Made by a program: the position numbers and the translations under genes | Notes under the pieces: generated by a model | Database searches by the model: none | What the model saw: the letters and a program-made list of their open reading frames with translations, nothing else | Told to the model about the DNA's origin: nothing | Shown: positions 5,932-53,205 of the stretch, in pieces | Layout: the number at the start of each line of letters is the position of its first letter | Position numbering within the stretch: the stretch's first letter is position 1 | DNA from: Candidatus Helarchaeota archaeon | GTDB lineage: Archaea > Asgardarchaeota > Lokiarchaeia > Helarchaeales > RDOG01 | Length of the DNA: 64,000 nucleotides | Assembly: GCA_019058315.1 (NCBI GenBank) | Contig: JAHPZH010000005.1 | Location: forward strand, 64,001 to 128,000 | Reading direction: 5' to 3'

Positions 5932-6861
5932 TTAAAAATTTCTTAATTTTATTAGTTTTAATACGTGCTCCCCGTTTTTTTCAGTAAATTCATAATAAAC
6001 CCATAATTCATTTTCATATTTTAATCCAAATAAATAACGACAAGAACCTTTACCAAAATCAGAGTGATATGTTGGTTCTTCCAAGCTTTGGATTTTTAGA
6101 TTTTTTGGTGAAGATCCGGTTAAAACACCAGATTTTTCTTCACATAAACCAGATTCTTGATCCGTTCCATCGAAAAATCCAAAGTATTGATCATTGAATT
6201 CGAAAATTGATGTTAATCGAATCATATAACTAGCCCATTTACAATCCTTTAAATTAACGAACACATCTCCATTCCATTTGAAGGAAATTCCATCTTGGCT
6301 CGTTAAGAGACCGCTTGATCCCCAAGGTTTTTTCCAAAATCGAAAATAATCGATATAGAGATGAATTTTATCATTAAAAACAGATACAATAGGATCTTTA
6401 ATGCTAAGTCTATGAAAACGGGGCAAATTCCATTTTATCTTTTGTATTTTTTTCGAATCAAAATTCGAGGGATCTCTTGCTACAATTTTTTTAATCTGCC
6501 ATCTAGGAATTATGGCATTAGATTCATATGAAAAAAATAAATTATATTTATCTTGAATTTTAATCATCGATGCTCCTTCGATGCTTTTTACATCAATTTC
6601 TTTTTTTCCCATTTCCCAAATTACTTTAAAATCAGTGCCATTTATTGACTCTAGAATTTGACATTTATACCCTCTATGAGTATCACTGGGTAATACTTTT
6701 CCCTTCTTCGGTCTAGGATTACGAATTCTTACATATAAATAGAATTTCTCGAAATCTTTATCAAAAAAAATTGAAGATGCACCAATCCAATACCCTTTTC
6801 CTTTTCCCTCAGGTTCTAAAATGGTGGTTCCTTCTTGCGGATTAAAAAGAAAGTTATCCAT
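5932..6861 (-). CDS. Putative five-bladed beta-propeller glycosidase-like protein
   Basis: Repeated S.NG..F and SQDGISFKW motifs, 'IKDPIV', 'RY...L......VYYE'. Confidence 0.55.
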   Translation of the reverse strand: MDNFLFNPQEGTTILEPEGKGKGYWIGASSIFFDKDFEKFYLYVRIRNPRPKKGKVLPSDTHRGYKCQILESINGTDFKVIWEMGKKEIDVKSIEGASMIKIQDKYNLFFSYESNAIIPRWQIKKIVARDPSNFDSKKIQKIKWNLPRFHRLSIKDPIVSVFNDKIHLYIDYFRFWKKPWGSSGLLTSQDGISFKWNGDVFVNLKDCKWASYMIRLTSIFEFNDQYFGFFDGTDQESGLCEEKSGVLTGSSPKNLKIQSLEEPTYHSDFGKGSCRYLFGLKYENELWVYYEFTEKNGEHVLKLIKLRNF

Positions 6862-6900
6862 TTAAATCCATCTGATACCAATAAATTAAGCTTTGAATTA

Positions 6901-7284
6901 TTAGCGTAATGATTTAGATCTATAATCCTGATAAATGTCCCAAATTCCATCTATTATAGAAAGGACAATAATTAATATTTTAAAGAAAATTGTATCAGGA
7001 TATACGAGAATTGAGTAAATTGCAATAAATGGGAGCGTAAACACATATGGACCGTGTTCAATATAAGTTCCTCCTATGGGAGATTCGCCATGTCTAATAT
7101 GCCTTTCATCCACAATATCCTTCCAAATTAAAATACCCAAAATGCTTAAACCAAACGTTATAAATATTGAATCAATTACATAATAAGCTCTTGCGGTCCA
7201 TTGTTGAAGATTTAGGATAACAATATAACCAATTAAGTGAATTAAACCAAGCAAAATTGAGATGATATAGTATTTGATTCTCAT
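6901..7284 (-). CDS. Small multi-pass membrane protein
   Basis: About four hydrophobic segments. Confidence 0.6.
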   Translation of the reverse strand: MRIKYYIISILLGLIHLIGYIVILNLQQWTARAYYVIDSIFITFGLSILGILIWKDIVDERHIRHGESPIGGTYIEHGPYVFTLPFIAIYSILVYPDTIFFKILIIVLSIIDGIWDIYQDYRSKSLR

Positions 7285-7406
7285 TAAATCTATTTCCTAA
7301 TAGTCTGGAATTTTTTCATTTTTTAACTTGTTCAAATCTAAGAAATATCATATAATTGAAAAAAAAATGTTTCGTTAGTACTGATGAAAAAAAATCAAAT
7401 GTTGAG

Positions 7407-8933
7407 TTAATGATCATGGTTATGCTCATGATCATGCTCATGTTCTATATTTACACTACGAAGCGAGCCGATAGCCCAACCAGCTACTTCATTTAATGAT
7501 GGGTGAATGACTTGGGAACGATAGATCGGCATAAATGATCCAGCTTCGGGACAGGTTTGCGAATATGTGGGTATTGGTTCAGATTCCGGAGTTGGGCTTA
7601 TATTACAAACGTATCCCGCATTCATAAGATATACAAATGGTTGAACTAACACTGCAGCGTGAGGACCAATAATATGGGCACCAAGTAATGTTCTAGATTG
7701 ATCTACGACAAGTTTTACAAACCCATCATCAATATCTCCTTTGTTTAATCCCATCGCAAACCCTTTTGCCACACTCGAATAATTCTTTTTTGCAACATAA
7801 ATTTTATACCCTTTTTCAATAGCTTCTGCCTCTGTTATTCCCACATGTCCAATTTGGGGGTATGTAAATATAGCCCAAGGGACAGAGGAATAATCAACCT
7901 TTAATCGATTATCTCCCTCAGCAAACATATTATTTTCTACAATCTCTGATTCATAATTAGCTTTATGACGAAATTGATATTTTCCATTTGCATCTCCAAT
8001 GCACCAAATATTCTTTTTGGCTGTTTCTAAATATTCATTTGTTATAATCCAACCTTTTTTATCTGTTTTAACACCAGTTTTTTCCACTTTTAATAAATCG
8101 GCATTGGAGCGGCGACCGGTAGCTACTAAAATTTCTTCAGCTTCCACTTCCGACTTTTCACCAGTTTTCATATCCTCAATTTTAACAATCTTAACTCCTT
8201 TCTTAGCATGTGCTTCAATCGCTTTTTTATTTACAAGAACCTTCATATATTTATTTAGATTTCTTTCTAAAAAAGCACTCACTTCAGGTTCTTCGGTATA
8301 TACTAAACGAGGTAGCATCTCAATTATTGTGACATCAGTACCAAATGCTGAAAATATATGTGCAAATTCAACGGCTATTACACCGCCTCCAAGAATAATA
8401 AGACTCTTCCAAGGTTTTTTAGGAAATTTATCTCCAAAAAAATTTTCATTTGTAATATATTCTATGTTTTCTATTCCTTTAATAGGAGGAATAAAAGACC
8501 GAGCACCAGTGGCTATTAGAAATTTTTCACCCTCAAATGTTTCTGAATAACTTCCATCTTTTAATTTAACCCTCATCTGATAATCTTTAACGAATTCTCC
8601 GGTCCCTTTATAAAACGAAAGTCTAGGTGATTTTGACAAACTTCTCTCCATTCTTTTATTCTCATCAATTTGGGACCACATCCGCTTTCCAATCATATCC
8701 CAATCAAATTTTTCTAATTTAAGTTGTAAACCTACTCGCTCTGCGTGTTGAGCTTCTCTAATTACATCTGCGGGATATACGAGAACTTTAGAAGGTATAC
8801 AACCTCGGGTGAGGCATGTACCACCGACTTTAGTATCTTCGATGATTGCACAACTTAACCGTCTACTAAGTACTGTATTAACAATGTTGAGCCCTGCACC
8901 AGTTCCAATGATAACAACATTATATTTTTCCAT
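7407..8933 (-). CDS. Pyridine nucleotide-disulfide oxidoreductase (dihydrolipoamide dehydrogenase/mycothione reductase-like)
   Basis: GTGAG FAD motif, GGTCLTRGCIPSK redox disulfide, GGGVIAVE, IGDANG, HPSLNE; His-rich tail. Confidence 0.9.
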   Translation of the reverse strand: MEKYNVVIIGTGAGLNIVNTVLSRRLSCAIIEDTKVGGTCLTRGCIPSKVLVYPADVIREAQHAERVGLQLKLEKFDWDMIGKRMWSQIDENKRMERSLSKSPRLSFYKGTGEFVKDYQMRVKLKDGSYSETFEGEKFLIATGARSFIPPIKGIENIEYITNENFFGDKFPKKPWKSLIILGGGVIAVEFAHIFSAFGTDVTIIEMLPRLVYTEEPEVSAFLERNLNKYMKVLVNKKAIEAHAKKGVKIVKIEDMKTGEKSEVEAEEILVATGRRSNADLLKVEKTGVKTDKKGWIITNEYLETAKKNIWCIGDANGKYQFRHKANYESEIVENNMFAEGDNRLKVDYSSVPWAIFTYPQIGHVGITEAEAIEKGYKIYVAKKNYSSVAKGFAMGLNKGDIDDGFVKLVVDQSRTLLGAHIIGPHAAVLVQPFVYLMNAGYVCNISPTPESEPIPTYSQTCPEAGSFMPIYRSQVIHPSLNEVAGWAIGSLRSVNIEHEHDHEHNHDH

Positions 8934-9080
8934 CTAAATTAACTCCTTTGATTGTAAAATCCCAATAATTTTAAAGTAAAATTTTTAATCTAAAGTTATA
9001 CAAATATAAGAAAGTTTACTTATAAAATTAAATTAATTCCAATAATAGGAAGTTCATATCCTTAAATTTCGTGAACTTAA

Positions 9081-10016
9081 ATGATTGATAAGCTCTATAT
9101 TATGTATGAGAACGGTGTATGCGTTTTTGAAAAGATTTATTATACTAGTTTGGATACAATCAAGACAGATTCCCAGCTATTTACTGGTTTCTTAACTGCT
9201 ATTGGTGGTTTTGCTGCAGAAGCTTTGGGAAGCGGATTACAATCGATGCATTTACAGACCGGAGAACAACTCGCAATAATGAAACATGAGTCAAGAATGG
9301 TCGGAATCTGTATCGCAGACGGACGCGATCACGACAAGCTGATTTCATCATTATTAAGAAAGATATTAGATCGATTTTATGAAATATTTAAGAGAGAAGT
9401 TGACATAATGGATGCGTCGTTACTTGGAAAAACTGATAAATTTGGAAAAGAAGTCGATTCTATTTTAAAAAATAAAGCTTCAAGTAGAGCAGATTGGAAA
9501 ATGGGGTTAGGAATATTAGTTGGATTTGCTATTTTAGGCTTGTTAACTTTTGTGATTTTAAATAGGACACTTTTAGAAAATATTCCAAGTCCATTATTTT
9601 TAGCCATACGAAATCCCATAAGTGCAATTTATATTGGAATGCTTGGAGAGTCAATAGGAGGAATATTATCATTAATAATGTTTTTTGTTGCAATATTATT
9701 TTTTATTCCATCAGTTATAACAGGCTATTTGAGCGGTAGTCGTGTTAGAGGACTAATTTCTGGTACAATTATAACTGTTATCGCCTATATTACCTTAATT
9801 TTAGCCAGATTTCAAATAATGGCAAGATTGGGACTGGATTTAAAGGATTGGTTCTTCAGTTTATCCCCTCTTATACTTTTCCTAACTCTATCAGTTTCAT
9901 TTAGTGCGGGTTATATCGCAGAGCGACTACACCTTTATACATTTCCAGAACCAGATAAAGAAATGGGAAAATTAGATAGGATTTTAAAATCTATAAAAGA
10001 TAAGATTGGTTTATAA
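9081..10016 (+). CDS. Longin-like domain + multi-pass membrane protein (paralogue 1)
   Basis: N-terminal 'LYIMYENGVCVFEK...DSQLFTGFLTAIGGFAAE...ILDRFYEIF' fits the Asgard longin pattern, followed by about 4 TM helices. Confidence 0.75.
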   Translation: MIDKLYIMYENGVCVFEKIYYTSLDTIKTDSQLFTGFLTAIGGFAAEALGSGLQSMHLQTGEQLAIMKHESRMVGICIADGRDHDKLISSLLRKILDRFYEIFKREVDIMDASLLGKTDKFGKEVDSILKNKASSRADWKMGLGILVGFAILGLLTFVILNRTLLENIPSPLFLAIRNPISAIYIGMLGESIGGILSLIMFFVAILFFIPSVITGYLSGSRVRGLISGTIITVIAYITLILARFQIMARLGLDLKDWFFSLSPLILFLTLSVSFSAGYIAERLHLYTFPEPDKEMGKLDRILKSIKDKIGL

Positions 10017-10027
10017 GGAATATTCGA

Positions 10028-10953
10028 TGATTCACAAATTATATTTAATGTTTGAAAGTGGAATTTGTATTTTTGAAAAAAATTTTTTTACTCATTTGGG
10101 TAAAGAAGAAAATACTCAAGTTTTTACTGGTTTCATCTCAGCTATCGGAAATTTTGCTTCCGAAGCTCTTGGTAGTACTCTACAGTCCATTCGATTACAA
10201 ACAGGAGAACAGCTTGCTATAATGAGGCATGAGCCATCAAAATTAGTTGTCATATGTGTTGCCGATGGCCGAGATCATGACAAATTACTGGCATCAATAT
10301 TACTAAAAATTCTTGATCGTTTTTTTGAAATTTTCAAAAAGGAAATTGAAGCGGAAGATACATCAATAGCTGAAAAATCTAAAGATTTTGAAAAAGAAAT
10401 TGAAATAATTCTAAAGAAAAAAATTTCAAGTAGAACTAATTTTAAAATGTTTGTTGGTATATTTTTAGGACTAACAATCTTGAGTTTATTAATTTTTATA
10501 GCTTTAAACAGAACTTTTTTAAATAATTTTCCAGGACCATTATTTTTTGCAGCGATGAATAATCCATTAATGCTATTTTTTATTGGTTCGATTGGAGAAT
10601 CAATAGGTTCAATTTTAGCATCCTTAATGTTTTTTATTGGATTTTTATTTATGTTACCTGCATTTATAACAGGTTTCTTGAGTGGAACCAGAGTAAGAGG
10701 ATTAATTTCTGGATTCATTATTATAATTGGTACATATTTAATACTTTTTTTAAGTGCCGTTCGTTTACAGGTTGTTTTAGGATTAGACTTAAGAGGATGG
10801 TTTCTTGGAATATCTCCATTAATCTTCTTCTTGACGTTATCAGTTTCATTTATTTCAGGATATTTAGCTGAGAGATTACGTCTTTATACTTTTGAAGAAC
10901 CAACAATTAAAAAAGGAAGGTTATCTAAGCTGTTAATTTTTAAAAAGAGATAA
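10028..10953 (+). CDS. Longin-like domain + multi-pass membrane protein (paralogue 2)
   Basis: Collinear paralogue of 9081-10016 (shared LQTGEQLAIM, ADGRDHDKL). The ATG at 10028 (MIHKLY) aligns with MIDKLY, so it is preferred over the 10006 start. Confidence 0.75.
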
Positions 10954-10977
10954 TAAAAATTAAAGGATTTAATAAAA

Positions 10978-11274
10978 ATGGAAGAACACGAAATTGACGA
11001 ATTAAGTCGCATATTATATTATGAGTTTAATAGAGGGGAATATGAAGTATTTCGCCTTGAAGTGTTAAATCGAAAAATAAAGACGTTTAAACAAAGGATT
11101 GAGCAAGCAAAAAAGATTTTGTGGAATAAAAATGAAATACTTCTTGCAAAAATTGTTAATTTATTAGAGAAAAATAGATTAGACTTGGTTAAGGAAATTT
11201 TCACTCGTGCTCAGAGACTTTATCGTCAAAAAGAGTTAAGTAAATTTATCAGTATGGATGATTTTGGAGAATAA
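10978..11274 (+). CDS. Hypothetical helical protein
   Basis: 98-aa ORF co-directional with the longin pair. Confidence 0.6.
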   Translation: MEEHEIDELSRILYYEFNRGEYEVFRLEVLNRKIKTFKQRIEQAKKILWNKNEILLAKIVNLLEKNRLDLVKEIFTRAQRLYRQKELSKFISMDDFGE

Positions 11275-11316
11275 ACAAATAATAAAATCTTATAATAATA
11301 AAAAATTTTACGAAAT

Positions 11317-11811
11317 TTATTCAGATTTTTTTTGAAGATATTGAAAAATCCTTTCTAATGTAATTCCTAGAAGAACACAAATATTATATGAAGCAATTGT
11401 ACATTCATGATATTTTTGTTCTACCCCTAATTCTAGATACAATTCTTCCGCAGCAAGATAATATTTAACTGCATTGACCAAATTTTCATTACTTTTTTCA
11501 ATTTTAGTAGCATAATCTGCAAATTTATCTGCTAATGATATCATTAAGGACTTACTATCTTCTTTTAATTCTAACTGATCATAATATTTTGCTGCTTCTT
11601 CTATATATTCCCTTCCTTTGAACGGATCAAGAGCTTTAGTATAATCTTCTAATACTTTAATAGCTTTTTTCATCGTTTTTATGTAATTTTTCTTTTTAAA
11701 ATTTTTATTGTAACATTCTGCAGCATTAACAAATAAATCTTTAGATTTTAAAGGATCTTCCTTTAATACTGTCTTTGCCTGACTCTCTAAGTTTTTACAT
11801 TTTTGAGACAA
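11317..11811 (-). CDS. SNAP-like/TPR helical repeat protein
   Basis: Repeated 'AAECY', 'AAKYY', 'AVKYYLAAEELY' helix pairs; paralogous N-terminus to 11813-12637. Confidence 0.6.
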   Translation of the reverse strand: MSQKCKNLESQAKTVLKEDPLKSKDLFVNAAECYNKNFKKKNYIKTMKKAIKVLEDYTKALDPFKGREYIEEAAKYYDQLELKEDSKSLMISLADKFADYATKIEKSNENLVNAVKYYLAAEELYLELGVEQKYHECTIASYNICVLLGITLERIFQYLQKKSE

Positions 11812-16179: not shown

Positions 16180-17010
16180 CTAAATTATGACAGATTTTAA
16201 GGTTTCATCAACTAACTCATATGCAGATAGAAAAACATCCATATTTCCATTCCATACGGGGATTAAGAATTGTTTATATTTTTTTTCAAATTTTTTAATA
16301 AATTCTTTTAGAAATTTTTTCATTTGCGATGTTTCTCTATTTACTAATAAAACTCCAATCAATCTACTCTGAGGTACAGATTCTAACTTAGTTGGAGGCA
16401 AATCTATAGTCCCATATTCAAAAATGAGCTCTTTATCTCCCATGTCGATATTTCTTAATTTTTCTTCACTTTTAGTTATATGTCTTATAAGATGTCCTAT
16501 TGCATTTAATGCAGATGAAATGAGATGCGAATCTCCTACACCTAGTGGTTCGGGATTATATGAAAATAAGCAACGACCATCAAAATTAGCTACAAATAAA
16601 TTAAAAATTTTGGCTTTGTCAAATTCCTCTTCTAAATCTTCTTCAATAACAGTATCGACCTTTCTCTTTTTTTTAGGAGGAAGGGTTTCTACAATCATTC
16701 CTATTAAATTTGGCTTTTTTTTATCACTAGTATCTAAATTAAGCGTGTTACAAATATCTTCTAGTTCTTTTTTATCAAAACATATATCTAATAATTCATC
16801 TAGACCATAGGTGGATTCATACATAATTTTTAAACATAATGATTCTTTACTTTCGCTTTGTTGCCGAGAGATATTGGCTAATTCAACTAATTCTAATATT
16901 TTCTTTTTTGAAACAAGGTTGGAGAGAAGAATATCATCAAAATGTTTAATTTGTTTTTCTTTTTTAATTGATTTACGTCCTTTTTTTATCCTCTTTGGAA
17001 TTATTATCAC
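16180..17010 (-). CDS. Protein with N-terminal helix-extension-helix (SAP/Rho-N-like) repeats and C-terminal longin-like domain
   Basis: 'KKELEDICNTLNLDTSDKKKPNLIGMI'; C-terminal 'NLFVANFDGRCLFSY...LISSALNAIG...FIKKFEKKY...WNGNMDVF'. Confidence 0.65.
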   Translation of the reverse strand: MIIIPKRIKKGRKSIKKEKQIKHFDDILLSNLVSKKKILELVELANISRQQSESKESLCLKIMYESTYGLDELLDICFDKKELEDICNTLNLDTSDKKKPNLIGMIVETLPPKKKRKVDTVIEEDLEEEFDKAKIFNLFVANFDGRCLFSYNPEPLGVGDSHLISSALNAIGHLIRHITKSEEKLRNIDMGDKELIFEYGTIDLPPTKLESVPQSRLIGVLLVNRETSQMKKFLKEFIKKFEKKYKQFLIPVWNGNMDVFLSAYELVDETLKSVII

Positions 17011-17207
17011 GCCATAATTTTTATTTATTGGAATCTATAATGTAACAGATTAATAAATGTATAATGTGCATTCGTCTAATTTCAAAATTTTAATATAGCA
17101 AATTAATATCAAATTCATATTATGAGTTTCCCTTCTCATTTTTCGAAATTGCTAAATACTAATTTTCTTATAATAACTAACAGAATTAAACTTGGATCTG
17201 CGAATAT

Positions 17208-20200
17208 ATGGGAGATTTCAAGATGAGAATTAATAATTTTAAAAGAAAAGGAAAGATTTTCACAATTCTGATTATCATGCTTATTAGTTTTTCAAACATT
17301 CATTATATCTTTCAGAAAAATCAGCTTGATCCATATAATTTAGCATTATTTACAAATATTTTTACTTCTAATATAAGAATGCCTTCTAATGATGGTCCAT
17401 TTTCCACTAAGTCCTCCTCTAGTGATGTCATTGAGGGTAATGGAGGAAAGTTAGACACTTTATTATATGAAAATATTAGTGGTCAAGTTCTTTCTTGTGA
17501 TACTTCTTCTGATTTTTCTATTTATACAAATGGATGGAATATAACCAAAACAGATCTAATTTTCACAAATGTTAAGGCACCAACAGATATAGATATTGAA
17601 ATATCAGAACCATTTGCGGGTGAACATAGATTGGATACTTTAAGAGCGATGTCATTTACTGTAGGAAGCGTTACCTATTTAAAGAAAATAAATGTTAATT
17701 TGCGATTAAAAAAACTCTACCCTGGTAATGATTTAGATTTATCTGTATTTAATACAAAAGCTACTGGGGAACCCAATAATATTATTTATAATGAAGGATT
17801 TGATTTAGATAGCTATTCTGATGGTTGGATTGAATTAAATTTAAGTTCGGATGTCCTATTGGACCCTGCTGATACTAATAATAGTAAATTTTTCATAGGG
17901 TTAAAAGAAGGTTCTATTTTACCTTCTCCTCAAGTCTATTGGTATTATTTAAATGATCTCTCTACCCCAGATGGTTCAAATGAAGGTGATGACTATTCTT
18001 ACAGTTTTGGAATGTGGACTTCTAATGATGTAGATTATACTTTAGGTCTCACATTAGATACTAATACATTACCATCAAATATAGAATTAAAAGTGAATGG
18101 TATTAATGTGGAGAATTTACAAATAGGTAATGGTACTTGGAATTCATCTGTTTTATATATTGGACCTAATGTTACTTTTAATGTCGAAGCAAATACTTCA
18201 GCGAGATTTGATGTAAATTGGACATGTCAATTTATAAATCAAACATTATCTAATACTTATTTTATTTCTAATGCGAGTAAATCAATTGTCAATTGGAATT
18301 CATCTATTCCAGCTAAATTTCATGCTAATTCATATGCTAGAGGCATTAATATGACAATACCCCTAGATTGGAATATTACTGAAGTAATATATGATTCTAG
18401 CTCACATTTATCTTGGGTTAATATAACAGAAAATGGTAAAAAAATTAATATTATATCCAATGTTTTTAATTCTACCTGGATAGCAGTTTGTATTGGACCA
18501 AACTATGTACGTGAAATAAGCTTAGAAAGAAAGGTTGATTCTAGCTTCACTCCTGTTAACGGTCCAGTTAATGGAACAGATACTATTAGAATAAACGCAT
18601 CTATAAAAGACGGTAAGGGTATTGAAATAATTAATGGGAATGGAAATTTATCTATTTTTAATCCAGAAGAAACTCTAAATTATATTGATCATACACCCCC
18701 AAACAGTACCCATGCTTTAAATGGAATTATAAGTTTTACACCTTGGCGAATTAATTTAACTGGAACAATGGGTGGAAATTATACAATTCAAGTAGTATGG
18801 TATAACCAGACAGAAGTGGGGATAAATGTTACTTCTATTGATATTAAATCAATTCCAACTCAATTAACATTGATTTATAATACCATATCGGCTAATACAG
18901 GGGATCCAATTGATGCTATAATATATTATAACGACTCATATTGGGGATATGGTATTCCAAATGCTAATTTTTATTTAATTAATAACTATACTTCTGGTTA
19001 CCATTTTGATTTTACTGTAACTCCATTATCACCAATGGGTAATTATTCAATTGCAATTTCTACAGCTACATTAACCGCAGGCTCTTATGAATTTATTATT
19101 ATTGCTAATAAATCAGTATATAATACATCAACTGTTAATATCACATTTACTATTCAAGGGAATAAATCTTATGCTTGGATTGTTTCTGGAGCTACACCAG
19201 TTGGACCGTTACTTGGTGGAAGAACCTTAGATGATGGATCTTTTGTTTACGATAATTACACAACAACTCCTTTAAATGATCCCTACTGGGATGATACTTC
19301 TCATAAACTTACAATTTATTACAATGATACTGTAGGAAATCCTATTACAATCGAAGATGTTGATCTGGTTGAAATCAGATGGGATAATAACGAGACAGAC
19401 ATTATCCCAACTTTAGTGGGATCTGGCTTATATAATGTAACCATTGATACAACAGGAATTACTGCTGGAATACATTTCTTTTCAATCATTATGCAAACTT
19501 CTAATTATTATAGAGCATATTTGAATGTGAGTGTAACTGTAAAACCCGTTCCTACTCAAGTTGACCCCGGATTATATGGAAATGTTACTCAATATGAAGG
19601 AGAGGATTTAGAATTCTGGGTGGCATATTTAGATGTTTATCATTCAAATCAACGGATAGAATCTCCACCAGCCATTGTAAAATATAATATTACGGGCTTT
19701 CCAAATATAAATGGAACCATGACATATATAGGAGCCCCAAATTTTGCTTATCGTGGTGAATTTAACCTTGGAGACTTAAGTCTGGGATCTTATAACTTAA
19801 CCATCTATGCTAGTGCTGGCACTGAATACCTTGAAGCAATTAGAAATATAACCGTTAATGTAATTCCAAAATATAATGTCTCTTTAAACTTAATTGATAT
19901 TCCATTTGGTATTAGAGTTGGAGAGGAATTAATCATTAGAGCAAAATTAATTAATGATATTACAGGTGATCCTCTCAAGTATGTGCCCATAAATGTAAAA
20001 ATTACTTTTCTTGATAGTCAAAATGGAACCATATCAGAATTAGAAGCGGTTCTAATCACAAATAATAATGGAACAATAGAAGAATCCTTAATTGTTCCTC
20101 AAAATGTGAAATATGCTAATATTTCTTTATTTTATAACGGGGATGTCAATGTAACTTCGGCAGTAAATAACACAATTCTTAATATCGCCCCCAAAAGATC

Positions 20201-21920
20201 AGTTCATTTGATAGTATTTTCTCCAACACCTACAATATGGGTGGGGGAACTTTTATTTATTGGTGCAAGTTTAACATACGGAGATACTGGGGAAGCGATT
20301 TTTGATGGATCTGTTGAGTTTGAAATAATATTTTTTGGTGAAAGAATTCTCCGATTTACTCAGATTGGAAAAACAGGTTCTGATGGAATTACTTATATAA
20401 GTTTTCCTATTCCATCAGATATTTCGGGAGTTTATTTAATTATGATAAATGCACGACATTCTGGGTCAAATACCGAAGCTTCAACTACTTCAAATCTGTT
20501 TCCTATTAATCTGCTATCAACAGGAAGAATTTTTATAGAAAACATATGGCTTTTTATAGCAATAATTGGAGCGGTTTCTGCTATGGGGACTTATAAAACA
20601 TGGAATTATTTGAGAAATAGAGGGTGGAAGAAGAAGATTGACCATTTATTTATAATAACGCATGGGGGTTCACCTATAAAAGAGTGGAAAATGGGGGGAG
20701 CTATACTAGACGCAACTTTGGTTTCGGGAGCCTTAAGCGGGATTGCATCTATTGTACGAGAAATGACAAAAAGTGTTAAAAAATTAACTTCAATTGATCA
20801 TGAAGATAAAAAATTAATATTTGCTTATGGTAAATTTGTAATTGGGGTATTAATTACTGAAAAAGATCAACCAATAATACATAAAAAACTAGATAAATTT
20901 GTAGATAATTTTGAATCAAAGTATTTTTATTATTTATCCTCTTGGGATGGTAATTTAAAGTATTTTCAAGATGCAGATGATTTATTAGTTGATATTTTCC
21001 CATTTGCAATCCCAGAGACTGTTCAAGAAAAGATTAAATTATATCCAGATATTATTAAAAAGGAAAATAGAATAAGAGAATTAAATATTGAAGCGGGACA
21101 TCTTCTTATGGAAAATAAACCAGCTATGGCAATTGAATCTTATATAGTTGCTGCTAAAATAGCTATTGAAATTGGAGACTTAGAAATATTTGAGAATTTC
21201 ATTATAAATATAAATAATCTTCAAAAAAGACTCTCAAAATTTGAAAAAAGACCAATGAGAAAATTAGATATTAAAACCGAAACTAAAGATAAAAAGAATC
21301 TTGCAACTAATATCGAAAAAATTCAAAAAGCAATAAAAATCTCAGACTTCCTTACAGCATTAAAATTAACTACAAAAAATGCAAACATTTACATGGACCT
21401 AGGGCAATATGAAATTGTTTCAGAATTGTTTCAAAAGATCAATGAATATGGTAAAAAACACAAATTGAAAATGAGAGAGATTCAGTTAAAAGAAAGAACT
21501 CAAAAAACCACAGATAAGATCAACAAGTTGAAAATGAAAGCTGAACTAGAGATTGAAAATGGAAATTTTTTAAAAGCTGCTGATAAGTATAATGAGGCTG
21601 CTATACTCGCAATACAAAATAATGATAGAGATAACTTTCAAGACCTTATGTCAAAAGTCGAAAAATATCAAAAAACTGAAGAAGAGACTACTTTGAAAGC
21701 AGAAAAAGAACGACAATTACTAATTCTTAAGGAATCAATACCGAGGATATTAGCAGAGGCAGAATCAGCAAAACTATCTGGTGATTATGAAAAAATAATT
21801 GAATTATATTTAAAAGTAGCCAATATCAATCAAAGTATAGGTCATATGGAAAATTTTATGAAATATATAACAATAGCGAAAGAATATAGGACAAAACTTG
21901 AAAATTTTACAAACAAATGA
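17208..21920 (+). CDS. Giant single-pass surface protein: Ig-like/beta-sandwich ectodomain, TM helix, cytoplasmic longin and SNAP-like TPR domains
   Basis: N-terminal signal/anchor; N/T/S-rich beta repeats; TM 'IWLFIAIIGAVSAMGTY' (~20543-20595); longin 'IDHLFIITHGGSPI...LVSGALSGIASIVREM...WDGNLKYF'; TPR-like 'KAADKYNEAA'. Confidence 0.8.
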   Translation: MGDFKMRINNFKRKGKIFTILIIMLISFSNIHYIFQKNQLDPYNLALFTNIFTSNIRMPSNDGPFSTKSSSSDVIEGNGGKLDTLLYENISGQVLSCDTSSDFSIYTNGWNITKTDLIFTNVKAPTDIDIEISEPFAGEHRLDTLRAMSFTVGSVTYLKKINVNLRLKKLYPGNDLDLSVFNTKATGEPNNIIYNEGFDLDSYSDGWIELNLSSDVLLDPADTNNSKFFIGLKEGSILPSPQVYWYYLNDLSTPDGSNEGDDYSYSFGMWTSNDVDYTLGLTLDTNTLPSNIELKVNGINVENLQIGNGTWNSSVLYIGPNVTFNVEANTSARFDVNWTCQFINQTLSNTYFISNASKSIVNWNSSIPAKFHANSYARGINMTIPLDWNITEVIYDSSSHLSWVNITENGKKINIISNVFNSTWIAVCIGPNYVREISLERKVDSSFTPVNGPVNGTDTIRINASIKDGKGIEIINGNGNLSIFNPEETLNYIDHTPPNSTHALNGIISFTPWRINLTGTMGGNYTIQVVWYNQTEVGINVTSIDIKSIPTQLTLIYNTISANTGDPIDAIIYYNDSYWGYGIPNANFYLINNYTSGYHFDFTVTPLSPMGNYSIAISTATLTAGSYEFIIIANKSVYNTSTVNITFTIQGNKSYAWIVSGATPVGPLLGGRTLDDGSFVYDNYTTTPLNDPYWDDTSHKLTIYYNDTVGNPITIEDVDLVEIRWDNNETDIIPTLVGSGLYNVTIDTTGITAGIHFFSIIMQTSNYYRAYLNVSVTVKPVPTQVDPGLYGNVTQYEGEDLEFWVAYLDVYHSNQRIESPPAIVKYNITGFPNINGTMTYIGAPNFAYRGEFNLGDLSLGSYNLTIYASAGTEYLEAIRNITVNVIPKYNVSLNLIDIPFGIRVGEELIIRAKLINDITGDPLKYVPINVKITFLDSQNGTISELEAVLITNNNGTIEESLIVPQNVKYANISLFYNGDVNVTSAVNNTILNIAPKRSVHLIVFSPTPTIWVGELLFIGASLTYGDTGEAIFDGSVEFEIIFFGERILRFTQIGKTGSDGITYISFPIPSDISGVYLIMINARHSGSNTEASTTSNLFPINLLSTGRIFIENIWLFIAIIGAVSAMGTYKTWNYLRNRGWKKKIDHLFIITHGGSPIKEWKMGGAILDATLVSGALSGIASIVREMTKSVKKLTSIDHEDKKLIFAYGKFVIGVLITEKDQPIIHKKLDKFVDNFESKYFYYLSSWDGNLKYFQDADDLLVDIFPFAIPETVQEKIKLYPDIIKKENRIRELNIEAGHLLMENKPAMAIESYIVAAKIAIEIGDLEIFENFIININNLQKRLSKFEKRPMRKLDIKTETKDKKNLATNIEKIQKAIKISDFLTALKLTTKNANIYMDLGQYEIVSELFQKINEYGKKHKLKMREIQLKERTQKTTDKINKLKMKAELEIENGNFLKAADKYNEAAILAIQNNDRDNFQDLMSKVEKYQKTEEETTLKAEKERQLLILKESIPRILAEAESAKLSGDYEKIIELYLKVANINQSIGHMENFMKYITIAKEYRTKLENFTNK

Positions 21921-21932
21921 GGGCGTGTTATA

Positions 21933-22451
21933 TTGGAGAAAATAATTTATAAAATTCTTTTATTAGGTGATCCTGGAGTAGGTAAAACAGCTCTTATAAC
22001 TCAATATATTGATAATAGATTTATAACTGATTATAAAGCCACTCTTGGATTTGATATCTTTATCAAAAAAATTATAGGATCCAAAGCAGAATTTTCATTA
22101 GCAATCTGGGATCTCGCGGGACAAGAGAAATATACATCCTTAAAACAATCATATTATGAAGGTGCCCAGGGAATTATTATGGTATATGATGTAACAGACC
22201 GAGAAAGCTATAAAAATATAATACAGTGGTTAACAGAATTGCAAAAAGTAGTAAAAACAATTCCTATTATGTTAGTAGGAAATAAAATTGATTTAACTGA
22301 CGAAATTAAAATCAATACAGAGGATGGGCAACGACTTAAAACAAGAATTAAAGCAATTAATTTTTATGAGACTTCAGCAAAAACTGGACATAATGTTAAT
22401 ACAATTTTTGAAGAACTTGCAGATATTATTAATAAACATTCATCGATATAG
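21933..22451 (+). CDS. Rab-like small GTPase
   Basis: G1 GDPGVGKT, switch I DYKATLG, G3 WDLAGQE, G4 NKID, G5 ETSAK; no C-terminal prenylation Cys. Confidence 0.95.
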   Translation: MEKIIYKILLLGDPGVGKTALITQYIDNRFITDYKATLGFDIFIKKIIGSKAEFSLAIWDLAGQEKYTSLKQSYYEGAQGIIMVYDVTDRESYKNIIQWLTELQKVVKTIPIMLVGNKIDLTDEIKINTEDGQRLKTRIKAINFYETSAKTGHNVNTIFEELADIINKHSSI

Positions 22452-22513: not shown

Positions 22514-22906
22514 TTGAATTTAGTTTTAGAACACGACATTTCCTACTATTGCAAAAAATTTAACTGTGGAAAATGCTGTGAAAAGGGTTGGGATATCTTT
22601 GTTACTGAATCTGATATAAGAAAGTGGGAGGAAAAAAAACCTGAAATCTTAAATCAAATAACAACTAAAAATATAAATGGAATAAGAAAAAAATTGCTTA
22701 AAAAACAACCAATCAAACTGCTAGATGGAAAAATACGTCAATTATGTGTGTTTTATGACTTTGAAAAAAAATGTACTATACACGATGTAAATCCTGAAAT
22801 ATGTAAGAAATTTTCGTGTTTGCATCATGTCTATTTCATTTTTCAATTTTTTAATAAAATTTCTGAATTAATAGAAGAATCTGATAAGAAAATGTTGAAC
22901 TCTTAA
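22514..22906 (+). CDS. YkgJ/CxxCxxCC family Zn/Fe-chelating protein
   Basis: CKKFNCGKCC...CVFYD...CTIHDVNPEICKKFSC. Confidence 0.85.
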   Translation: MNLVLEHDISYYCKKFNCGKCCEKGWDIFVTESDIRKWEEKKPEILNQITTKNINGIRKKLLKKQPIKLLDGKIRQLCVFYDFEKKCTIHDVNPEICKKFSCLHHVYFIFQFFNKISELIEESDKKMLNS

Positions 22907-22927
22907 GTAAGTTCAAATTTAGGGCGT

Positions 22928-25588
22928 ATGGCTTATATGAAAGATGAACTTCGAGAAGAAGACTCTAATATCGAGCAAAAATTAAAAGAAACTCAAATTA
23001 AGAGTGAGTTTGATTATCAAAATTTATTTAATGATATTCCTTGTGCTCTTTGGGTTATAAATTTTTCAGATATTAAATTGTACATTGATGAATTACGTAA
23101 TAAAGGAATTAAAGATTTTAGATCTTTTTTTAAAAATGACCCTGATTTTTATTCAACTTGTGTTTCTTTCATGAATATTATAGATGTCAACAGAGCAGCT
23201 ATACAATTATATCAAGCCAAAAACAAGGAGGAAGTTTTACAATATTTAAATGATACCTTTTGCAAAGAATCTTTAGATTTATTTTTAGAAGGAATTATTT
23301 CTATAATTGAGGGTAATTTACCGTTTGAAGGCGAGACTATAATTCAAACTATAAAGGGAAATAAAATTAATGTATTTTATAATTGGTTTATAGCTTCTGG
23401 TTTTGAAAAAAGCTTATCTAAAGTATTTGTAAGTCTCCATGATATTAGTGACCGGAAACAAATAGAATTATTATTACGTAAAGAACGAGATTTAGTCCAA
23501 AAATATCTAGATTTAATTGGAGTTCTTCTTATAACTTTAAATAAAAAAGGTGAAATAACCCTTATCAATCAAAAAGGATATCAGACTTTAGGATATGAAG
23601 AACAAGAGCTTATTGGTAAAAATTGGTTTGATAATTGTTTACCAGAACGAAATATAGAGGAAGTGAAATTAGTTTTTCAAAAATTAGTGGTAGGAGAAAT
23701 TGAACCAGTTGAATATTATGAAAATCCAATTATAACTAAAAGTGGTGAAGAAAGAATTATCGCTTGGCATAATACTGTTTTGACAGATGATATTGGAAAT
23801 ATTATTGGAATATTAAGTTCTGGAGAGGATATTACTGAGCGAATAAGAGGAGAAAAAAAATTAGCAAACCAAATGTATTTAATTGAGTCTATAAATACAA
23901 TATTAAAAGAAGCTTTAAGATTAGACAGTGAAATAAATGTTGCCAAAATGTGTCTAATTTTTGCTGAGGAGTTGACGAATAGCAAATTTGGCTTTATTGG
24001 TGAAATAAATGAAGATGGATATTTCGATACTATTGCTTTAAGTAATCCAGGATGGGAGGCGTGCACCATGGAAAAAACCGCTGCAATAAAATTACTTAAA
24101 AACATGGAGATTCGCGGCATTTGGGGGGAAGTTTTAAAAAGTGGGAAAACTTTAATAGCAGATGATCCCGAATCTCATCCTTCAAGTGTTGGTACTCCTG
24201 TTGGTCACCCAAGATTAACAAGTTTTTTAGGAGTTCCGTTATTTTACGCTGGAAATACATTTGGAATGATTGCTGTGGCTAATAAAGAAATAGAGTATAA
24301 TTCTGATGATCAGCAAGCCATAGAAACTCTTTCAATATCATTCATGGAAGCTTTGATGAATAAAAGAGCAGAAATAAAACTAAAAAATGCCAAAGAAACA
24401 CTTTTAGAAGCGCAAAAAATAGCTCATATAGGAAATTGGGATTGGAATATAGTTACTAATGAATTAAGTTGGTCTGATGAAATTTACCGCATATTCGGGC
24501 TTGCTCCACAAGAATTTGGAGCAACATATGAAGCATTTTTAAATAGTGTCCATCCCGACGATAGAGAATTTGTTACAAAATCCGTTAATGAAGCCATTTA
24601 TGATAAAAAACCTTACTCTATTGATCATCGTATTATTTTACCTGATGGGACACAACGAATAGTACATGAACTAGGTAAAGTTACATTTGATAAGGATGAT
24701 AAACCAATTAGAATGTTAGGAACTGTCCAAGATATCACCGAATTAAAGCTAATTGAAAATGAATTAAAGAAACATAGGGACAACCTTGAAGAATTAGTTT
24801 TAGAGCGTACAAGAGAATTGGAATTAGCAAATAAAAAACTTCAATTAGAAATTGAACAAAGAATAAAAGCTGAAAAAGATCTGGAACTATTCGTATATGC
24901 AGTTTCTCATGAAATAAGAACACCAATTTCAGTTTTAGTCCAATCTATAGATAATTTAGAGGTTTATGGAGAAAAATTATCAGAGAATTTGAAATCAAAA
25001 TTAATAAAAACGATGTCTAGAAATACATCATTATTATCCGAATTAATAGAGGATCTTTTATTAGCTTCAAGGATAGAAAGAACAGAAATAGAATTAAAGT
25101 GGGAAAATTACAAGCTATTCGATGTTTTAAAAGATGTATTAGACCAAATGGAACCTCGTTACAAATCAAGAGGAATAAAAATTGATACAGATGTGGATAT
25201 AAATATTCAATTATTTGGTGATATCAAACGTATTGCACAGATCTTTCGAATATTTATTGATAATGCTATAAAATATTCAAAAGAAAGATCACTGATAAAG
25301 ATTAAAGTATTTAATAAATATAAAGGAGAATTTAATCCGAAATCAATTGATGGTGTTTTAATTCAGTTCATTGATAATGGAATAGGTATTAAGAAGGAAG
25401 ATATCCCTAATTTGTTTAAAAAATATTTCAGATCTAAAGACGCAATGAATATTCCTGGTACAGGTTTAGGACTAACTATTGCAAAAACTCTAACTTATTA
25501 TCATCAAGGAGAAATATTTGTAGAAAGTGATTATGGTAAAGGAACGACTTTTTCCATTTTTCTTCCCAGATTAGAGGAACAACCATAA
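22928..25588 (+). CDS. Cytoplasmic PAS/GAF sensor histidine kinase
   Basis: Three PAS/PAC segments, GAF 'HPRLTSFLGVPL', H-box SHEIRTP, N-box DNAIKYS, G boxes DNGIGI and GTGLGL. Confidence 0.95.
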   Translation: MAYMKDELREEDSNIEQKLKETQIKSEFDYQNLFNDIPCALWVINFSDIKLYIDELRNKGIKDFRSFFKNDPDFYSTCVSFMNIIDVNRAAIQLYQAKNKEEVLQYLNDTFCKESLDLFLEGIISIIEGNLPFEGETIIQTIKGNKINVFYNWFIASGFEKSLSKVFVSLHDISDRKQIELLLRKERDLVQKYLDLIGVLLITLNKKGEITLINQKGYQTLGYEEQELIGKNWFDNCLPERNIEEVKLVFQKLVVGEIEPVEYYENPIITKSGEERIIAWHNTVLTDDIGNIIGILSSGEDITERIRGEKKLANQMYLIESINTILKEALRLDSEINVAKMCLIFAEELTNSKFGFIGEINEDGYFDTIALSNPGWEACTMEKTAAIKLLKNMEIRGIWGEVLKSGKTLIADDPESHPSSVGTPVGHPRLTSFLGVPLFYAGNTFGMIAVANKEIEYNSDDQQAIETLSISFMEALMNKRAEIKLKNAKETLLEAQKIAHIGNWDWNIVTNELSWSDEIYRIFGLAPQEFGATYEAFLNSVHPDDREFVTKSVNEAIYDKKPYSIDHRIILPDGTQRIVHELGKVTFDKDDKPIRMLGTVQDITELKLIENELKKHRDNLEELVLERTRELELANKKLQLEIEQRIKAEKDLELFVYAVSHEIRTPISVLVQSIDNLEVYGEKLSENLKSKLIKTMSRNTSLLSELIEDLLLASRIERTEIELKWENYKLFDVLKDVLDQMEPRYKSRGIKIDTDVDINIQLFGDIKRIAQIFRIFIDNAIKYSKERSLIKIKVFNKYKGEFNPKSIDGVLIQFIDNGIGIKKEDIPNLFKKYFRSKDAMNIPGTGLGLTIAKTLTYYHQGEIFVESDYGKGTTFSIFLPRLEEQP

Positions 25589-25648
25589 AAAAATATATAT
25601 AGAAAATGAAATGTAATATATCTGATGAAATAAAAAAGGAGTTTCAGC

Positions 25649-26536
25649 TTGAAGCCATTAATACTATGTGTAGATGACAATGAAGATATTTTATTAAATC
25701 TACGGTTAACATTAGAATTTAATGATTATGAAGTAATCACGGGAAAAAATGGCATAGAGGGTATAATCATATTATCCGAACTCGGGCGACTTCCAGACAT
25801 CATAATAAGTGATATAATGATGCCCGAAATGAATGGATATGATTTCTTTAAAAAAGTTTCTGAAAACTCGAAGTGGAATCGCATTCCATTTTTATTTTTA
25901 ACAGCTCGAACTTCTCCAACAGATGTTAGATTTGGCAAAATGTTAGGTGTTGATGATTATCTTACTAAACCCTTTAAAAAAGAAGATTTGATGGCCATAA
26001 TTGCTGGAAAACTTGCTAGAAGAAGAAAAACAGAAGAAGTTAGTGAAAAAGTTGAAGAAGTTCTCTCCTCTTTAAAAATTGATGAAAAACCTTCAATCTC
26101 TATTGAAGAAAAATTTTTAGTAAATTTATTATTAGTGTTTTGGGACGATAAAACGGGTCCTAGGGTTTTAAATTACTATCCAAAAGACATTAAATTACCT
26201 TTTTCTGTTGATAAAATAGGTGTTCAATTATATAATTCTATAGTTTCTATTTATGGACAAGGAAAAGTTGCTGAAGCTCAAGGTATATTATTAAATATAA
26301 AAAATATCGAGAGGGATGGTTTTATTTATTTTGATTCATATCCAGATAGTTCAATCAGAGGAGGTGAACAACAATATATGTTGGGGGTTATTGCTCCAAA
26401 GATTAATTATTTTGAATCTTTAAAAATTGGTGAACGCTTTAAACATATATCTTCACATATTAAATTAAAGGAAGATTGGGATTTTAAAAGTCATTGGGAA
26501 GAAATTGCAAATCTTTTATCAACTCCTTCACTGTAG
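25649..26536 (+). CDS. Response regulator (receiver) fused to a longin/uDENN-like domain
   Basis: Receiver: VDDN, SDIMMP, FLTA, YLTKPF; C-terminal 'LLLVFWDDKTGPRVLNYYP'. Confidence 0.85.
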   Translation: MKPLILCVDDNEDILLNLRLTLEFNDYEVITGKNGIEGIIILSELGRLPDIIISDIMMPEMNGYDFFKKVSENSKWNRIPFLFLTARTSPTDVRFGKMLGVDDYLTKPFKKEDLMAIIAGKLARRRKTEEVSEKVEEVLSSLKIDEKPSISIEEKFLVNLLLVFWDDKTGPRVLNYYPKDIKLPFSVDKIGVQLYNSIVSIYGQGKVAEAQGILLNIKNIERDGFIYFDSYPDSSIRGGEQQYMLGVIAPKINYFESLKIGERFKHISSHIKLKEDWDFKSHWEEIANLLSTPSL

Positions 26537-29981: not shown

Positions 29982-32900
29982 TTACTCTATTTGGAGTATA
30001 TTTACTGAAGAGTTTGCTCTTAAATCTACATTATACATTGGATAACCCACCGTCTCCTTTACAATTATTTCTCCCGGTTTTGTTGCAGTCATATTATAAG
30101 TTAAGGTTATTGATCCATCCAATTCATTTAGATAAAGATTCAATTTGTCACTAGTTAATTTATATGATGTGATTTGATATTCTTCCACCAGTTTCTTTAA
30201 TGATTGTTCCACAACTAAAAAACCAGCGGGGATAGGTTCCTCTATTGCAAACATTCCCTGTTTTTCGGTTGTTGTTATATTAAGTTTAACACTTATGGAA
30301 TCATTCTGTGCAACTTTATTTGAACTGAAATCTCTTGTTATTGTTAACATTTTGGGTTTTAGAAGATATTCTTTAGGATACCATGCTTCTATTGTTAAAT
30401 CGTACACTAATAAGCCCTCACCATTCTTTTCTAATATCAATTTATTTTCAGAATTTAGATTATCTAACGGAATATTTCTCATATCATAAACAATATGTTC
30501 TAAAGTGTCTTCATTTACTTCGAATTCTCCTATTACCTGTTTATTAAAAATTGCCTGTGTTAGAAAATTCGTTTTTTCGCTTCTTGCGCAATTAGAAAGA
30601 CAAAGAATAGCGGCTATAGTATCTGATGTTGTACTCCATCCACCACCTTTAGCGCGATTAGCCATAATATAATTTAAGACCCTTTGAACATTTACTGGAT
30701 CTCCTCCTGCAATATTTAAAGCTAGTGCAGCATAAGCTGTAGATTCAACTTTTCCAGCTAGTGATGAACCAACGTCCCAATAGACGAAATCGCCTTCATT
30801 ATGAGCTGATGTATTTAATTTTTCTATAAGGAGGTTCAATTCCTTATTGTATTTATTTGACCCTTCTTTAATGATGTCGATTATTAAATAGGCTAATAGG
30901 TTTGGGTCGTTCGTTCTCTTTGAGGAGAGGATAGCGTTTGATATAATATTTTCTAAAGCTTTGTCAATAATTTCTTGATTTACGTTATATCCAGCTTTTT
31001 TAGCCTCGAGTAATGCTTGTATAACATACGCTGTACAGAAGTCTTTCCCTCGTCTATTTGATTCCCAAGTCCCTTGAGAAGTTTGTATTTTCTTTAATTC
31101 TTCTATTGCAGCATTAATTAGTTTTTTTTCTATAAAAAATCCCGAGTTAATTGTATAAGCCAAACCAAACAATACATAGGCTGTAGTGAAAGGCTCTGAT
31201 TGCTCATTTCCCCAATATCCCCAACCACCACGGTCATTTCGAAGACTTATTAATTGTTGAATACCCTTAGTTGTCATTTCTTCAAATTGTTCTTGGAATT
31301 TGTTAGTAAGCATATTATTTTCTTTTAGCAGATTGTAAACTAGAACGTTAGGTAAAAATTTCGACATAGTTTGTTCTACACAACCATGAGGATATCCTAA
31401 TATCGATTCTAATCCATCCATGCAACCCATTTGATAACCAGGTATCAATGAAAGGCGTGCTTTATAAAAAATTGCGTCTCTTGGTATAGTTGGAGATATA
31501 TTAATAATTTCATCTTCCAAAATAAGTCCCGTATATCTGAAAATATGAGGTTCTCCTTTAGGATTTATTTTTATTTTTTTTCTTAAGACATCAATATGCT
31601 TCGGTGTTTTAGCTTCGATCCAAAATGTCGCCTCACCTGGATTAATTGCTTTCAATTTGAAATCGAGACGTTTCATCCCATTTGCAGGAACGAGAATATT
31701 CCCTTTCGGTATGTCAACTTTTAATTTATATTTATCAGCATTTAAATTAACGTTACATTCTAAGTTTTCTTTTGTTAGATTTGTCAAAATTATTCCAAGT
31801 TGAATATTATCTCCATGAGTTAAAACTGGTGGGATATCAAGTTTTGCAAAAAAATCTTGTTTAACTGTAATTCTATGAGTTCCCATACCTATCTCACAAT
31901 CTTTTGTACTTGCAAACACTGTCAACTCATGACTTGTTATCTGATCTGGTAGCTCTGTTTCTAGCATAGATTGACCATCTGATTCTAGGAATGGAATCCA
32001 AAGAGATGTTTCTGGGAAATTGAATCGAACACTGACCATAGATATTGGGTTTACTGAATCAGTTAAAATTAAACCTAATTTTGCACCCGGCGTACTAGAA
32101 CCCCCAAAGCATCTATGAACAACACTTGGACCGCTTGATTTGCCAGCGACTGAATAAAAACCATAACCTGAACCTGAACTTGTGGTAATACCAATTGTTC
32201 GTTTATAATCCTTAGTGAAAGATCCTCCCCTTAACATCAGCGCTTCTTCTCCAATATAATATTCACGTGAATAATGTTCGACATCGGTCATAATTGACAT
32301 ATATTTTGGATACCCTACTATAGTGGGAAGCACAGAACGAGGACCATCTTCTCCTGCAAAACCCGCATAACTAAAATTCGATCCTAATTCCAAACAGATG
32401 GGGTTTCCTTTTGGATCTTTGTATACTTTCGGTTTTACCTTTTTGAGAGATTTGAATTTTATATCAATTTTTTGAATAAATTTTTGTATTTGCCTTTTAG
32501 AATCACTCTTTATCAACATTTCATTAAGAACTGCTTTTATTTCGTTTGTAAGGGGAGAATCTTTTGTACAAATTGTATTAAAAATCCTTTCGCTAATATT
32601 AATTAAACATTCATCTTCTTGTTCCTTTGTAATATGACCCTCTTTTGATAACTGATGAATATCTGTAACTATTTCTTGATACAAATCAATATTATTATCA
32701 TCGATTTGGCTTATCTCATCTTCTGCAGCTATCATTAAGATGTTATTATCATTTACTAGAATCAAACTTTCAGAAATAATTTTTAAAATATTATAAATGA
32801 GAGTTTTACTGTTTTTTTCTTTATTTTTTTCTGCAATTTCTTGAATAAGTTCAATTATTTTCCTCTTTACAAGCCTATGATTAACATCTTGTATCATCCC

Positions 32901-53087: not shown

Positions 53088-53205
53088 TAATTTTTTTTTC
53101 TCTTTTTTATTTAAAACTTATTTATTAACTCTTTTTCATATGGAAAAAATTTTATAATCAATCATTTAATTAAGAATCTATAATTTACTAAAATGGAGTT
53201 ATCAA

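Follow-up and report, generated by a model that had tools for sequence, protein, structure and literature searches.

A longin-tailed surface glycoprotein as a possible membrane dock for a Rab-like GTPase in a Helarchaeota archaeon

Several guanine nucleotide exchange factors (GEFs) of Rab GTPases, namely Mon1-Ccz1, Fuzzy-Inturned, and the TRAPP core, are obligate heterodimers of two dedicated longin subunits, and the eukaryotic Rabs themselves have a hypervariable C-terminal tail with cysteines for geranylgeranylation. In Asgard archaea, longin families are expanded and are fused to GTPases and to two-component, tetratricopeptide repeat (TPR), and Ig-like domains, in patchy, lineage-specific architectures described in three studies (10.1101/2020.10.19.343400, PMC10933270, PMC11188069). 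This expansion and these fusions are already known. Pairing Asgard Rab-like GTPases with their regulators by genome layout is described as difficult in one of these studies (PMC10933270). Here, we describe a locus in a 64,000-nucleotide stretch of a Candidatus Helarchaeota archaeon genome (the window; G000:C2:64001-128000), where a gene for a 1570-aa membrane protein with a cytoplasmic longin (the receptor) lies 12 bp upstream of a gene for a Rab-like GTPase and is transcribed divergently from a gene for a soluble longin protein. We tentatively favor a modular membrane dock, in which a variable surface glycoprotein uses its constant tail to hold a Rab-like GTPase, probably the one encoded downstream. 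The host genome (5.8 Mb, ~30% GC) is one of 7 in its order, within a class of >150 genomes, and the organism is represented solely by sediment metagenome assemblies.

The three open reading frames were verified, and their coordinates and lengths agree with an earlier annotation made from the DNA alone (the original prediction), including the 12-bp gap and the divergent longin gene (Table 1). The topology that it had proposed, a single-pass protein with a large ectodomain and a cytoplasmic tail, also held. Two hydrophobic segments bound an outer part of 1070 aa, which contains 47 N-glycosylation sequons (shuffle mean 19.8, maximum 30), compared with 2 in the 440-aa inner part, and the Lys+Arg share is 5% outside and 17% inside. 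The division of the sequons settles the orientation of the receptor. Pfam and NCBIfam searches with the full 1570-aa protein returned no match. The ectodomain appears Ig-like or lectin-like by Atlas features only (0.84); all Atlas matches were below 0.9 and serve as a lead only. The 1570-aa protein is most likely a modular surface glycoprotein, in which a conserved cytoplasmic tail carries an outer part, for binding or adhesion, that can be exchanged.

Five metagenomic loci were informative for comparison (L001, L002, L003, L110, and L111, the first two from the same assembly). The receptors of L003 and L111 are 22-33% identical to the window receptor over residues 440-1100, whereas their longins are 79% and 69% identical and the helical units that follow are 42-79% identical. 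Despite this ectodomain swap, the GTPase gene still lies directly downstream of the tail in both loci. The middle ectodomain of L003 and L111 instead resembles that of a paralog in the window's own genome (C3:435484; 50-66% for L003), the longin of which is only ~25% identical, and the middle ectodomain of the window receptor is 48-56% identical over residues 500-900 to P0004, a protein with a short tail that lacks a longin. Because ectodomain and tail find different nearest relatives, the outer and inner parts of the receptor recombine. The GTPases of the window, L003, and L111 form one group (89/95 support). The tail is the part that stays in front of one GTPase clade while the ectodomain changes, and this is the best positive sign of a link between them. 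A literature search, from which subscription papers mostly fell outside, found no single-pass longin-tailed glycoprotein or receptor; likewise, the accessible text of the work on longin fusions by Liu et al., Tran et al., and Makarova et al. does not describe such a glycoprotein, the exchange of its ectodomain, or a matched GTPase.

We modeled the longin with AlphaFold2 from an alignment of 128 sequences. Residues 1137-1271 of the receptor form a longin fold (predicted local distance difference test score [pLDDT] of 93.4), with a five-stranded sheet and the element order strand-strand-helix-strand-strand-strand-helix-helix. The top structural match is the CPLANE chain 7q3d_C (Z 12.9, root mean square deviation [rmsd] 3.0, 122 residues aligned), followed by the VAMP7 longin (Z 11.9), Mon1-Ccz1 9rs7_A (11.8), MK-D1 Roadblock3 (11.6, ~100 residues), TRAPP 3cue_C (11.5), delta-COP (11.5), and MglB (11.4, ~100 residues). 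The fold is secure, but with these Z values nearly tied it does not distinguish a longin of the GEF, adaptor, or SNARE type. At the sequence level, Pfam Fuz_longin_1 matched the tail weakly (E 0.018), and searches of PDB sequences with the longin and tail profiles found no significant relative.

These matches place the receptor beside three kinds of known systems. CPLANE Fuzzy-Inturned (7q3d, 9rs9), Mon1-Ccz1 (5ldd, 9rs7), and TRAPP Bet5-Trs23 (3cue) share its longin fold (Z 11.5-12.9, 120-122 aligned) and the Rab-like nature of the candidate client. In contrast to them, the receptor has one longin per chain by the family hidden Markov model, carried on a single-pass ectodomain protein and 12-16% identical to theirs; the window GTPase is not prenylated, and a dedicated second longin is at most putative. 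Neither a tri-longin arrangement nor a TRAPPC3-fold partner was found. The Roadblock platforms MglA-MglB and Ragulator-Rag have a related fold and also tether a lipid-free GTPase to a membrane. Compared with these, the receptor has the longin helix order, with two C-terminal helices, and its tether is an integral surface protein rather than a basic patch or a lipidated scaffold. Longin GTPase-activating proteins (GAPs) are defined by a GP motif that precedes strand 2 or lies at its start (PMC12290439). FLCN-FNIP, NPRL2-NPRL3, SMCR8-C9orf72, and their Heimdallarchaeia look-alikes (PMC12290439) share the longin fold and a conserved glycine at the start of strand 2 with the receptor family, yet the GP motif occurs in 0 of its 128 members (G-x-P in 17), the receptor having G-S-P and the soluble longin G-R-C. 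This absence makes FLCN-type GAP chemistry unlikely. FLCN, NPRL2, and SMCR8 have a conserved arginine finger beside this motif; in either longin alignment, no arginine column is more than 56% conserved.

The original prediction had described the tail as a longin followed by TPRs, and only the longin stood firmly. TPR solenoids are tandem 34-residue helix pairs stacked into a superhelix, whereas the model of the tail beyond the longin shows four tandem all-helical units of three helices each, with a period of ~72 residues and joined by long helices. A TPR-like sequence pattern is present, with Pfam TPR scores below the cut-off. The TM-score of the units against LGN TPR and other TPR solenoids is ~0.2, in a model of uncertain inter-unit geometry (predicted TM-score 0.59, 8 sequences). 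The best matches are MIT domains, at Z 8.7-10.8, inside the range of unrelated helical bundles. For these reasons, TPR is a loose label here. Two other surface proteins of the genome, C5:1105353-1112846 (2497 aa) and C5:633464-639565 (2033 aa), have tails with seven and one such units, respectively, and no longin.

The GTPase matches Pfam Ras (PF00071, 184 bits) and has the motifs GDPGVGKT (G1), TLGFDI (switch I), WDLAGQE (G3), NKID (G4), and ETSAK (G5), together with the switch II glutamine and RabF-like signatures; the motifs are unbroken in all five orthologs. The protein terminates 5 residues past the G domain without a C-terminal cysteine and thus lacks the prenylation tail of eukaryotic Rabs, so that its description as a Rab-like, non-prenylated GTPase was borne out. 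Among the 54 short GTPases of the genome, a single one has a cysteine within its last five residues. Membrane contact of the other 53 needs a protein dock. Thor-Rab and other Asgard Rabs have the same missing lipid anchor, according to Tran et al. (PMC10933270). The GAGGG purine run overlapping the receptor stop codon and the 12-bp spacer are kept in L003, which suggests that receptor and GTPase are translationally coupled. A promoter and terminator scan, which models bacterial promoters, gave 44 sites compared with 41 by chance, and the divergent intergenic region was at chance level.

A survey of gene order, proposed with the original prediction, gave a divided answer: the receptor-GTPase link is present in the window, L003, and L111 and is broken in L110 and L002. 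In L003, receptor and GTPase (83%) are retained together with the downstream genes for the CxxCxxCC protein, kinase, and regulator. In L001, the soluble longin lies head-to-head with a 71%-identical receptor, and the contig stops short of the GTPase. L111 holds the soluble longin, the receptor, a 95-aa gene (2368-2655, minus strand) that is a copy of the fourth helical unit (49-51% identical), and two GTPases; this gene order is at odds with a single tandem duplication. L110 has the same block without the receptor, its GTPase (63%, motifs intact) being head-to-head with an intact soluble longin. Just upstream of this GTPase, 16 codons match the receptor C-terminus with a score of 211, whereas 500 shuffles reached at most 166 and 600 real intergenic stretches at most 162. 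Because L111 diverges before L110 in the longin and GTPase trees (94/89 and 94/88) and because L110 retains this remnant, the receptor is ancestral in the slot and was deleted in L110. Its late insertion between the two genes is ruled out on the same grounds.

Wider searches added little to these loci. A metagenome scan with the GTPase as query returned only paralogs (39-47% identity) and no orthologs, a genome-collection scan with the tail had no match, and the other six genomes of the order (82-94% complete) yielded, with the window GTPase as query, no GTPase above 46% identity, so the survey stands on the five loci. One contig from another study crosses the receptor-GTPase junction with only ~35 bases on the GTPase side, and no informative joint was found among fragments from four DNA runs. 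The assembly of L001 and L002 (GCA_048887025) is labeled Hodarchaeota, although many of its genes are syntenic with genes of the window's genome and share 75-95% identity with them. The other close homologs of that genome are labeled Helarchaeota, so the discrepancy may reflect an error in one of the labels or a mixed bin.

The divergent protein does have a similar longin, as originally claimed: the two are 36% identical over 108 aa (E 8e-11). The motif that they share, in contrast, is the consensus of the whole family, conserved across 128 relatives at E49 (92%), S53 (81%), D64 (80%), G72 (95%), W110 (80%), G112 (98%), and F117 (95%), and it was rejected as the mark of a dedicated pair. Among ~140 longins of the genome, the divergent longin is eleventh closest to the receptor longin in tree distance; in identity it is fifth, level with seven others at 33-36%. 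Besides its longin, which has a 14-aa insert between strands 4 and 5, the divergent protein carries a conserved domain of ~115 aa at its N-terminus, with weak Rho_N/SAP matches (3 of 13 members match Rho_N, the best at E 8e-5). Eleven homologs of it were found.

The tail's longin family is present in all 151 class genomes searched. The host genome has ~145 genes with this longin and 108 GTPases of this kind, the former including ~52 multi-pass membrane proteins, 45 soluble proteins with an N-terminal longin, 7 GTPase fusions, and 7-10 single-pass surface proteins; ~10 members are soluble proteins of 1110-1140 aa with a C-terminal longin. For one Loki genome, 41 longins were predicted (PMC10933270), and the ~145 genes are well above that figure. 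Longin genes adjoin GTPase genes in 21 of 138 cases, compared with 5.4 (maximum 12) in shuffles, or ~4x chance. Among 11 longin-tailed homologs of the ectodomain in the order's other genomes, 2 are GTPase-adjacent (L142 and L149). These two are kin, with two different arrangements, and their GTPases are orthologous to each other and not to that of the window; the GTPase link thus recurs in the ectodomain family, in a minority of members. Two members without a longin (L004 149-5848 and L148 5914-10218) have a 264- to 266-aa GTPase directly upstream, which shows that members of this family can be linked to a GTPase even when they lack a longin; the GTPase of L004 has a C-terminal extension with a cysteine pair. 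In L139, a 1277-aa ectodomain homolog (from 3749) ends in a partial longin and is followed by a 408-aa gene with a longin match and one helical unit, which resembles a split longin.

Given the observed topology, fold, ectodomain swap, and gene order, we infer how such a dock may work. By analogy with TRAPP, Mon1-Ccz1, and CPLANE, the receptor longin would dimerize, either with itself or with one of the many related longins of the genome, and the dimer would dock a non-prenylated Rab-like GTPase at the cell membrane beneath the receptor. The likeliest client is the GTPase encoded downstream, which is probably co-translated with the receptor, and its binding may be assisted by the last three-helix unit; consistent with this, L111 carries extra copies of unit 4 and of the GTPase. 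The link would be optional, with the GTPase having other inputs and persisting where the receptor is lost. Of docking and catalysis, docking is the more probable; for a catalytic longin, nucleotide exchange would be more probable than GAP activity of the FLCN type. A complex prediction of tail, soluble longin, and GTPase scored 0.49 (0.36 for a control with the tail replaced) and was not used as evidence. The receptor-to-GTPase link of the original prediction therefore survives in its anatomy and in the tail kept upstream of one GTPase clade, and loses its case for the divergent longin as a dedicated partner. A stronger form, in which interchangeable sensing parts signal from outside through a constant longin tail that switches a dedicated Rab-like GTPase at the membrane, with the locus as a matched pair, seems doubtful.

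Several observations weigh against a dock and would suit a receptor that passively occupies a position in a gene block shared at the genus or family level, its neighboring GTPase not being the client; the longin would then form part of a network in which it combines with some of the 144 other longins, or it would be an adaptor for sorting or clustering the surface protein. We consider this unlikely, though it is the most serious competitor. The informative loci are few and close kin, and recombination inside a fixed slot would yield the same swap pattern without any functional link. Unrelated genes for an ArsR regulator, a membrane protein, the CxxCxxCC protein, the kinase, and the response regulator are equally syntenic, at 53-89%, so synteny alone does not single out the three genes. 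The receptor is missing in L110, and L002 has a 58%-identical copy at another site, split by an in-frame stop and without the GTPase or the soluble longin. Adaptor sigma and mu subunits and the VAMP7 SNARE longin match the receptor longin about as well as the Rab GEFs do. The genome has so many longin and GTPase genes (145 and 108) that the two are often adjacent, and soluble N-terminal longins account for most of the excess (12 of 45; background 3.4%). Of the sequon-rich single-pass proteins of this genome, 2 of the 10 that have a longin lie beside a GTPase, as do 3 of the 52 that lack one. No GTPase lies within three genes of the closest tail paralog (C3:435484), and 9 of the 11 longin-tailed ectodomain homologs lack an adjacent GTPase. 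MK-D1 GTPases are also generally outside operons with longins, according to Tran et al. (PMC10933270). Against passive synteny, the spacer and purine run are preserved, the tail is retained despite ectodomain exchange, unit 4 and the GTPase are jointly duplicated in L111, and longin-GTPase adjacency is four times chance genome-wide.

The remaining alternatives assign the main role to another part of the locus. It is improbable that the GTPase is in truth regulated by the soluble longin, acting on it as a homodimer in the way MglB acts on MglA, with the receptor an optional insert between the genes. The soluble longin and the GTPase do stand intact and head-to-head after the deletion in L110, and the soluble longin is kept in the block in all 4 loci that show that side (the window, L001, L110, and L111). 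Its homologs in other genera (L113-L116 and L127) and the 47%-identical in-genome paralog, however, have no GTPase or receptor among the neighbors seen; it belongs to the C-terminal longin class, where GTPase adjacency is low (2 of 34), and its Rho_N/SAP-like domain hints at a different job. These same homologs, with neither neighbor, also count against a dedicated, ligand-switched GEF of the Mon1-Ccz1 or Bet5-Trs23 kind formed by the receptor and the divergent longin to activate the window GTPase, as do the family-wide motif, the soluble longin without a receptor in L110, and the receptor copy without a soluble longin in L002. Such a heterodimer, too, appears improbable, even though the window and L111 each hold all three genes, the two longins rank among the nearer paralogs of one another (34% identity compared with a median of 23%, ranks 4-11 of ~140), and the longins of CPLANE, Mon1-Ccz1, and TRAPP are among the best fold matches. 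MIT domains are asymmetric three-helix bundles that bind ESCRT-III MIM peptides, and the three-helix units could themselves be the working part, binding ESCRT-III-type helices in the manner of tandem MIT domains and sorting the surface protein into vesicles or protrusions. Tandem MIT of calpain-7 is the top VIA match (Z 10.8, rmsd 7.2, 129 aligned), the archaeal Vps4 MIT 2w2u also matches (Z 9.5, rmsd 1.5, 63 aligned), such units terminate other, longin-less surface proteins of the genome, and many ESCRT-related architectures are described for Helarchaeia (PMC11188069). Against this, Z values below ~13 may reflect a common helical-bundle arrangement, since de novo designed bundles score equally; the units have a TPR-like pattern, and no ESCRT gene was identified in the block. 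We regard this alternative as very improbable. A docking tail remains our preferred, if tentative, reading of the locus.

Table 1. Features of the receptor locus, in window coordinates
Feature	Coordinates	Strand	Remarks
Soluble 276-aa protein	16180..17010	-	Rho_N/SAP-like helical domain at ~residues 20-115, longin at 133-273
Divergent intergenic region, AT-rich, 197 bp	17011..17207		
1570-aa single-pass surface glycoprotein	17208..21920	+	Tail consists of longin and three-helix units
Signal or anchor helix, N-terminal	17256..17312	+	Residues 17-35, preceded by a basic n-region
Ectodomain, ~1070 aa	17313..20522	+	47 sequons; exchanged segment at ~residues 400-1100
Transmembrane helix	20529..20591	+	~Residues 1108-1128, followed by basic residues
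Longin domain	20631..21005	+	Residues 1142-1266; AlphaFold2 model and fold matches
Four tandem three-helix units	21039..21914	+	~Residues 1278-1343, 1355-1422, 1427-1492, 1497-1569
12-bp spacer between receptor and GTPase	21921..21932	+	GAGGG purine run over receptor stop codon
Rab-like small GTPase, 172 aa	21933..22451	+	
CxxCxxCC protein, PAS/GAF histidine kinase, response regulator	22514..26536	+	Co-oriented, downstream; context only

Other features of the window were recorded alongside the locus. Two tandem genes (9081-10016 and 10006-10953, plus strand) encode proteins in which a longin at the N-terminus precedes four transmembrane helices, opposite to the usual order of membrane-longin proteins; L110 has one such gene. 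At 59692-60537 (plus strand), a 281-aa protein fuses a longin to an Arf/Roc-like small GTPase. A 1650-aa alpha-2-macroglobulin-like protein (TED, A2M, MG2, and bait region) is encoded at 29982-34934 (minus strand); its residues 844-901 match Pfam Actin near the threshold (E 2.5e-6, 26.8 bits with a cut-off of 27), possibly as an inserted domain. A variable slot at 51759-54534, flanked by an MFS gene and a sulfatase, holds two genes for 442-aa membrane proteins with ten helices; in L002, the same slot (6822-11531) holds the second receptor copy, split by an in-frame TGA.

The weight of the locus is limited because the organism is known only from sediment metagenome assemblies and the receptor-GTPase pair is not obligate. 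Its value lies in natural variants: a swap in which tail and GTPase are kept, a deletion that spares the GTPase and the soluble longin, and a duplication of unit 4 together with the GTPase. A longin-tailed membrane protein would be a simple answer to how lipid-free Asgard GTPases could reach the membrane and receive outside cues before there were endomembranes. The signaling form of this reading, if true, would mean outside-in small-GTPase signaling through the fold of the eukaryotic Rab GEFs.

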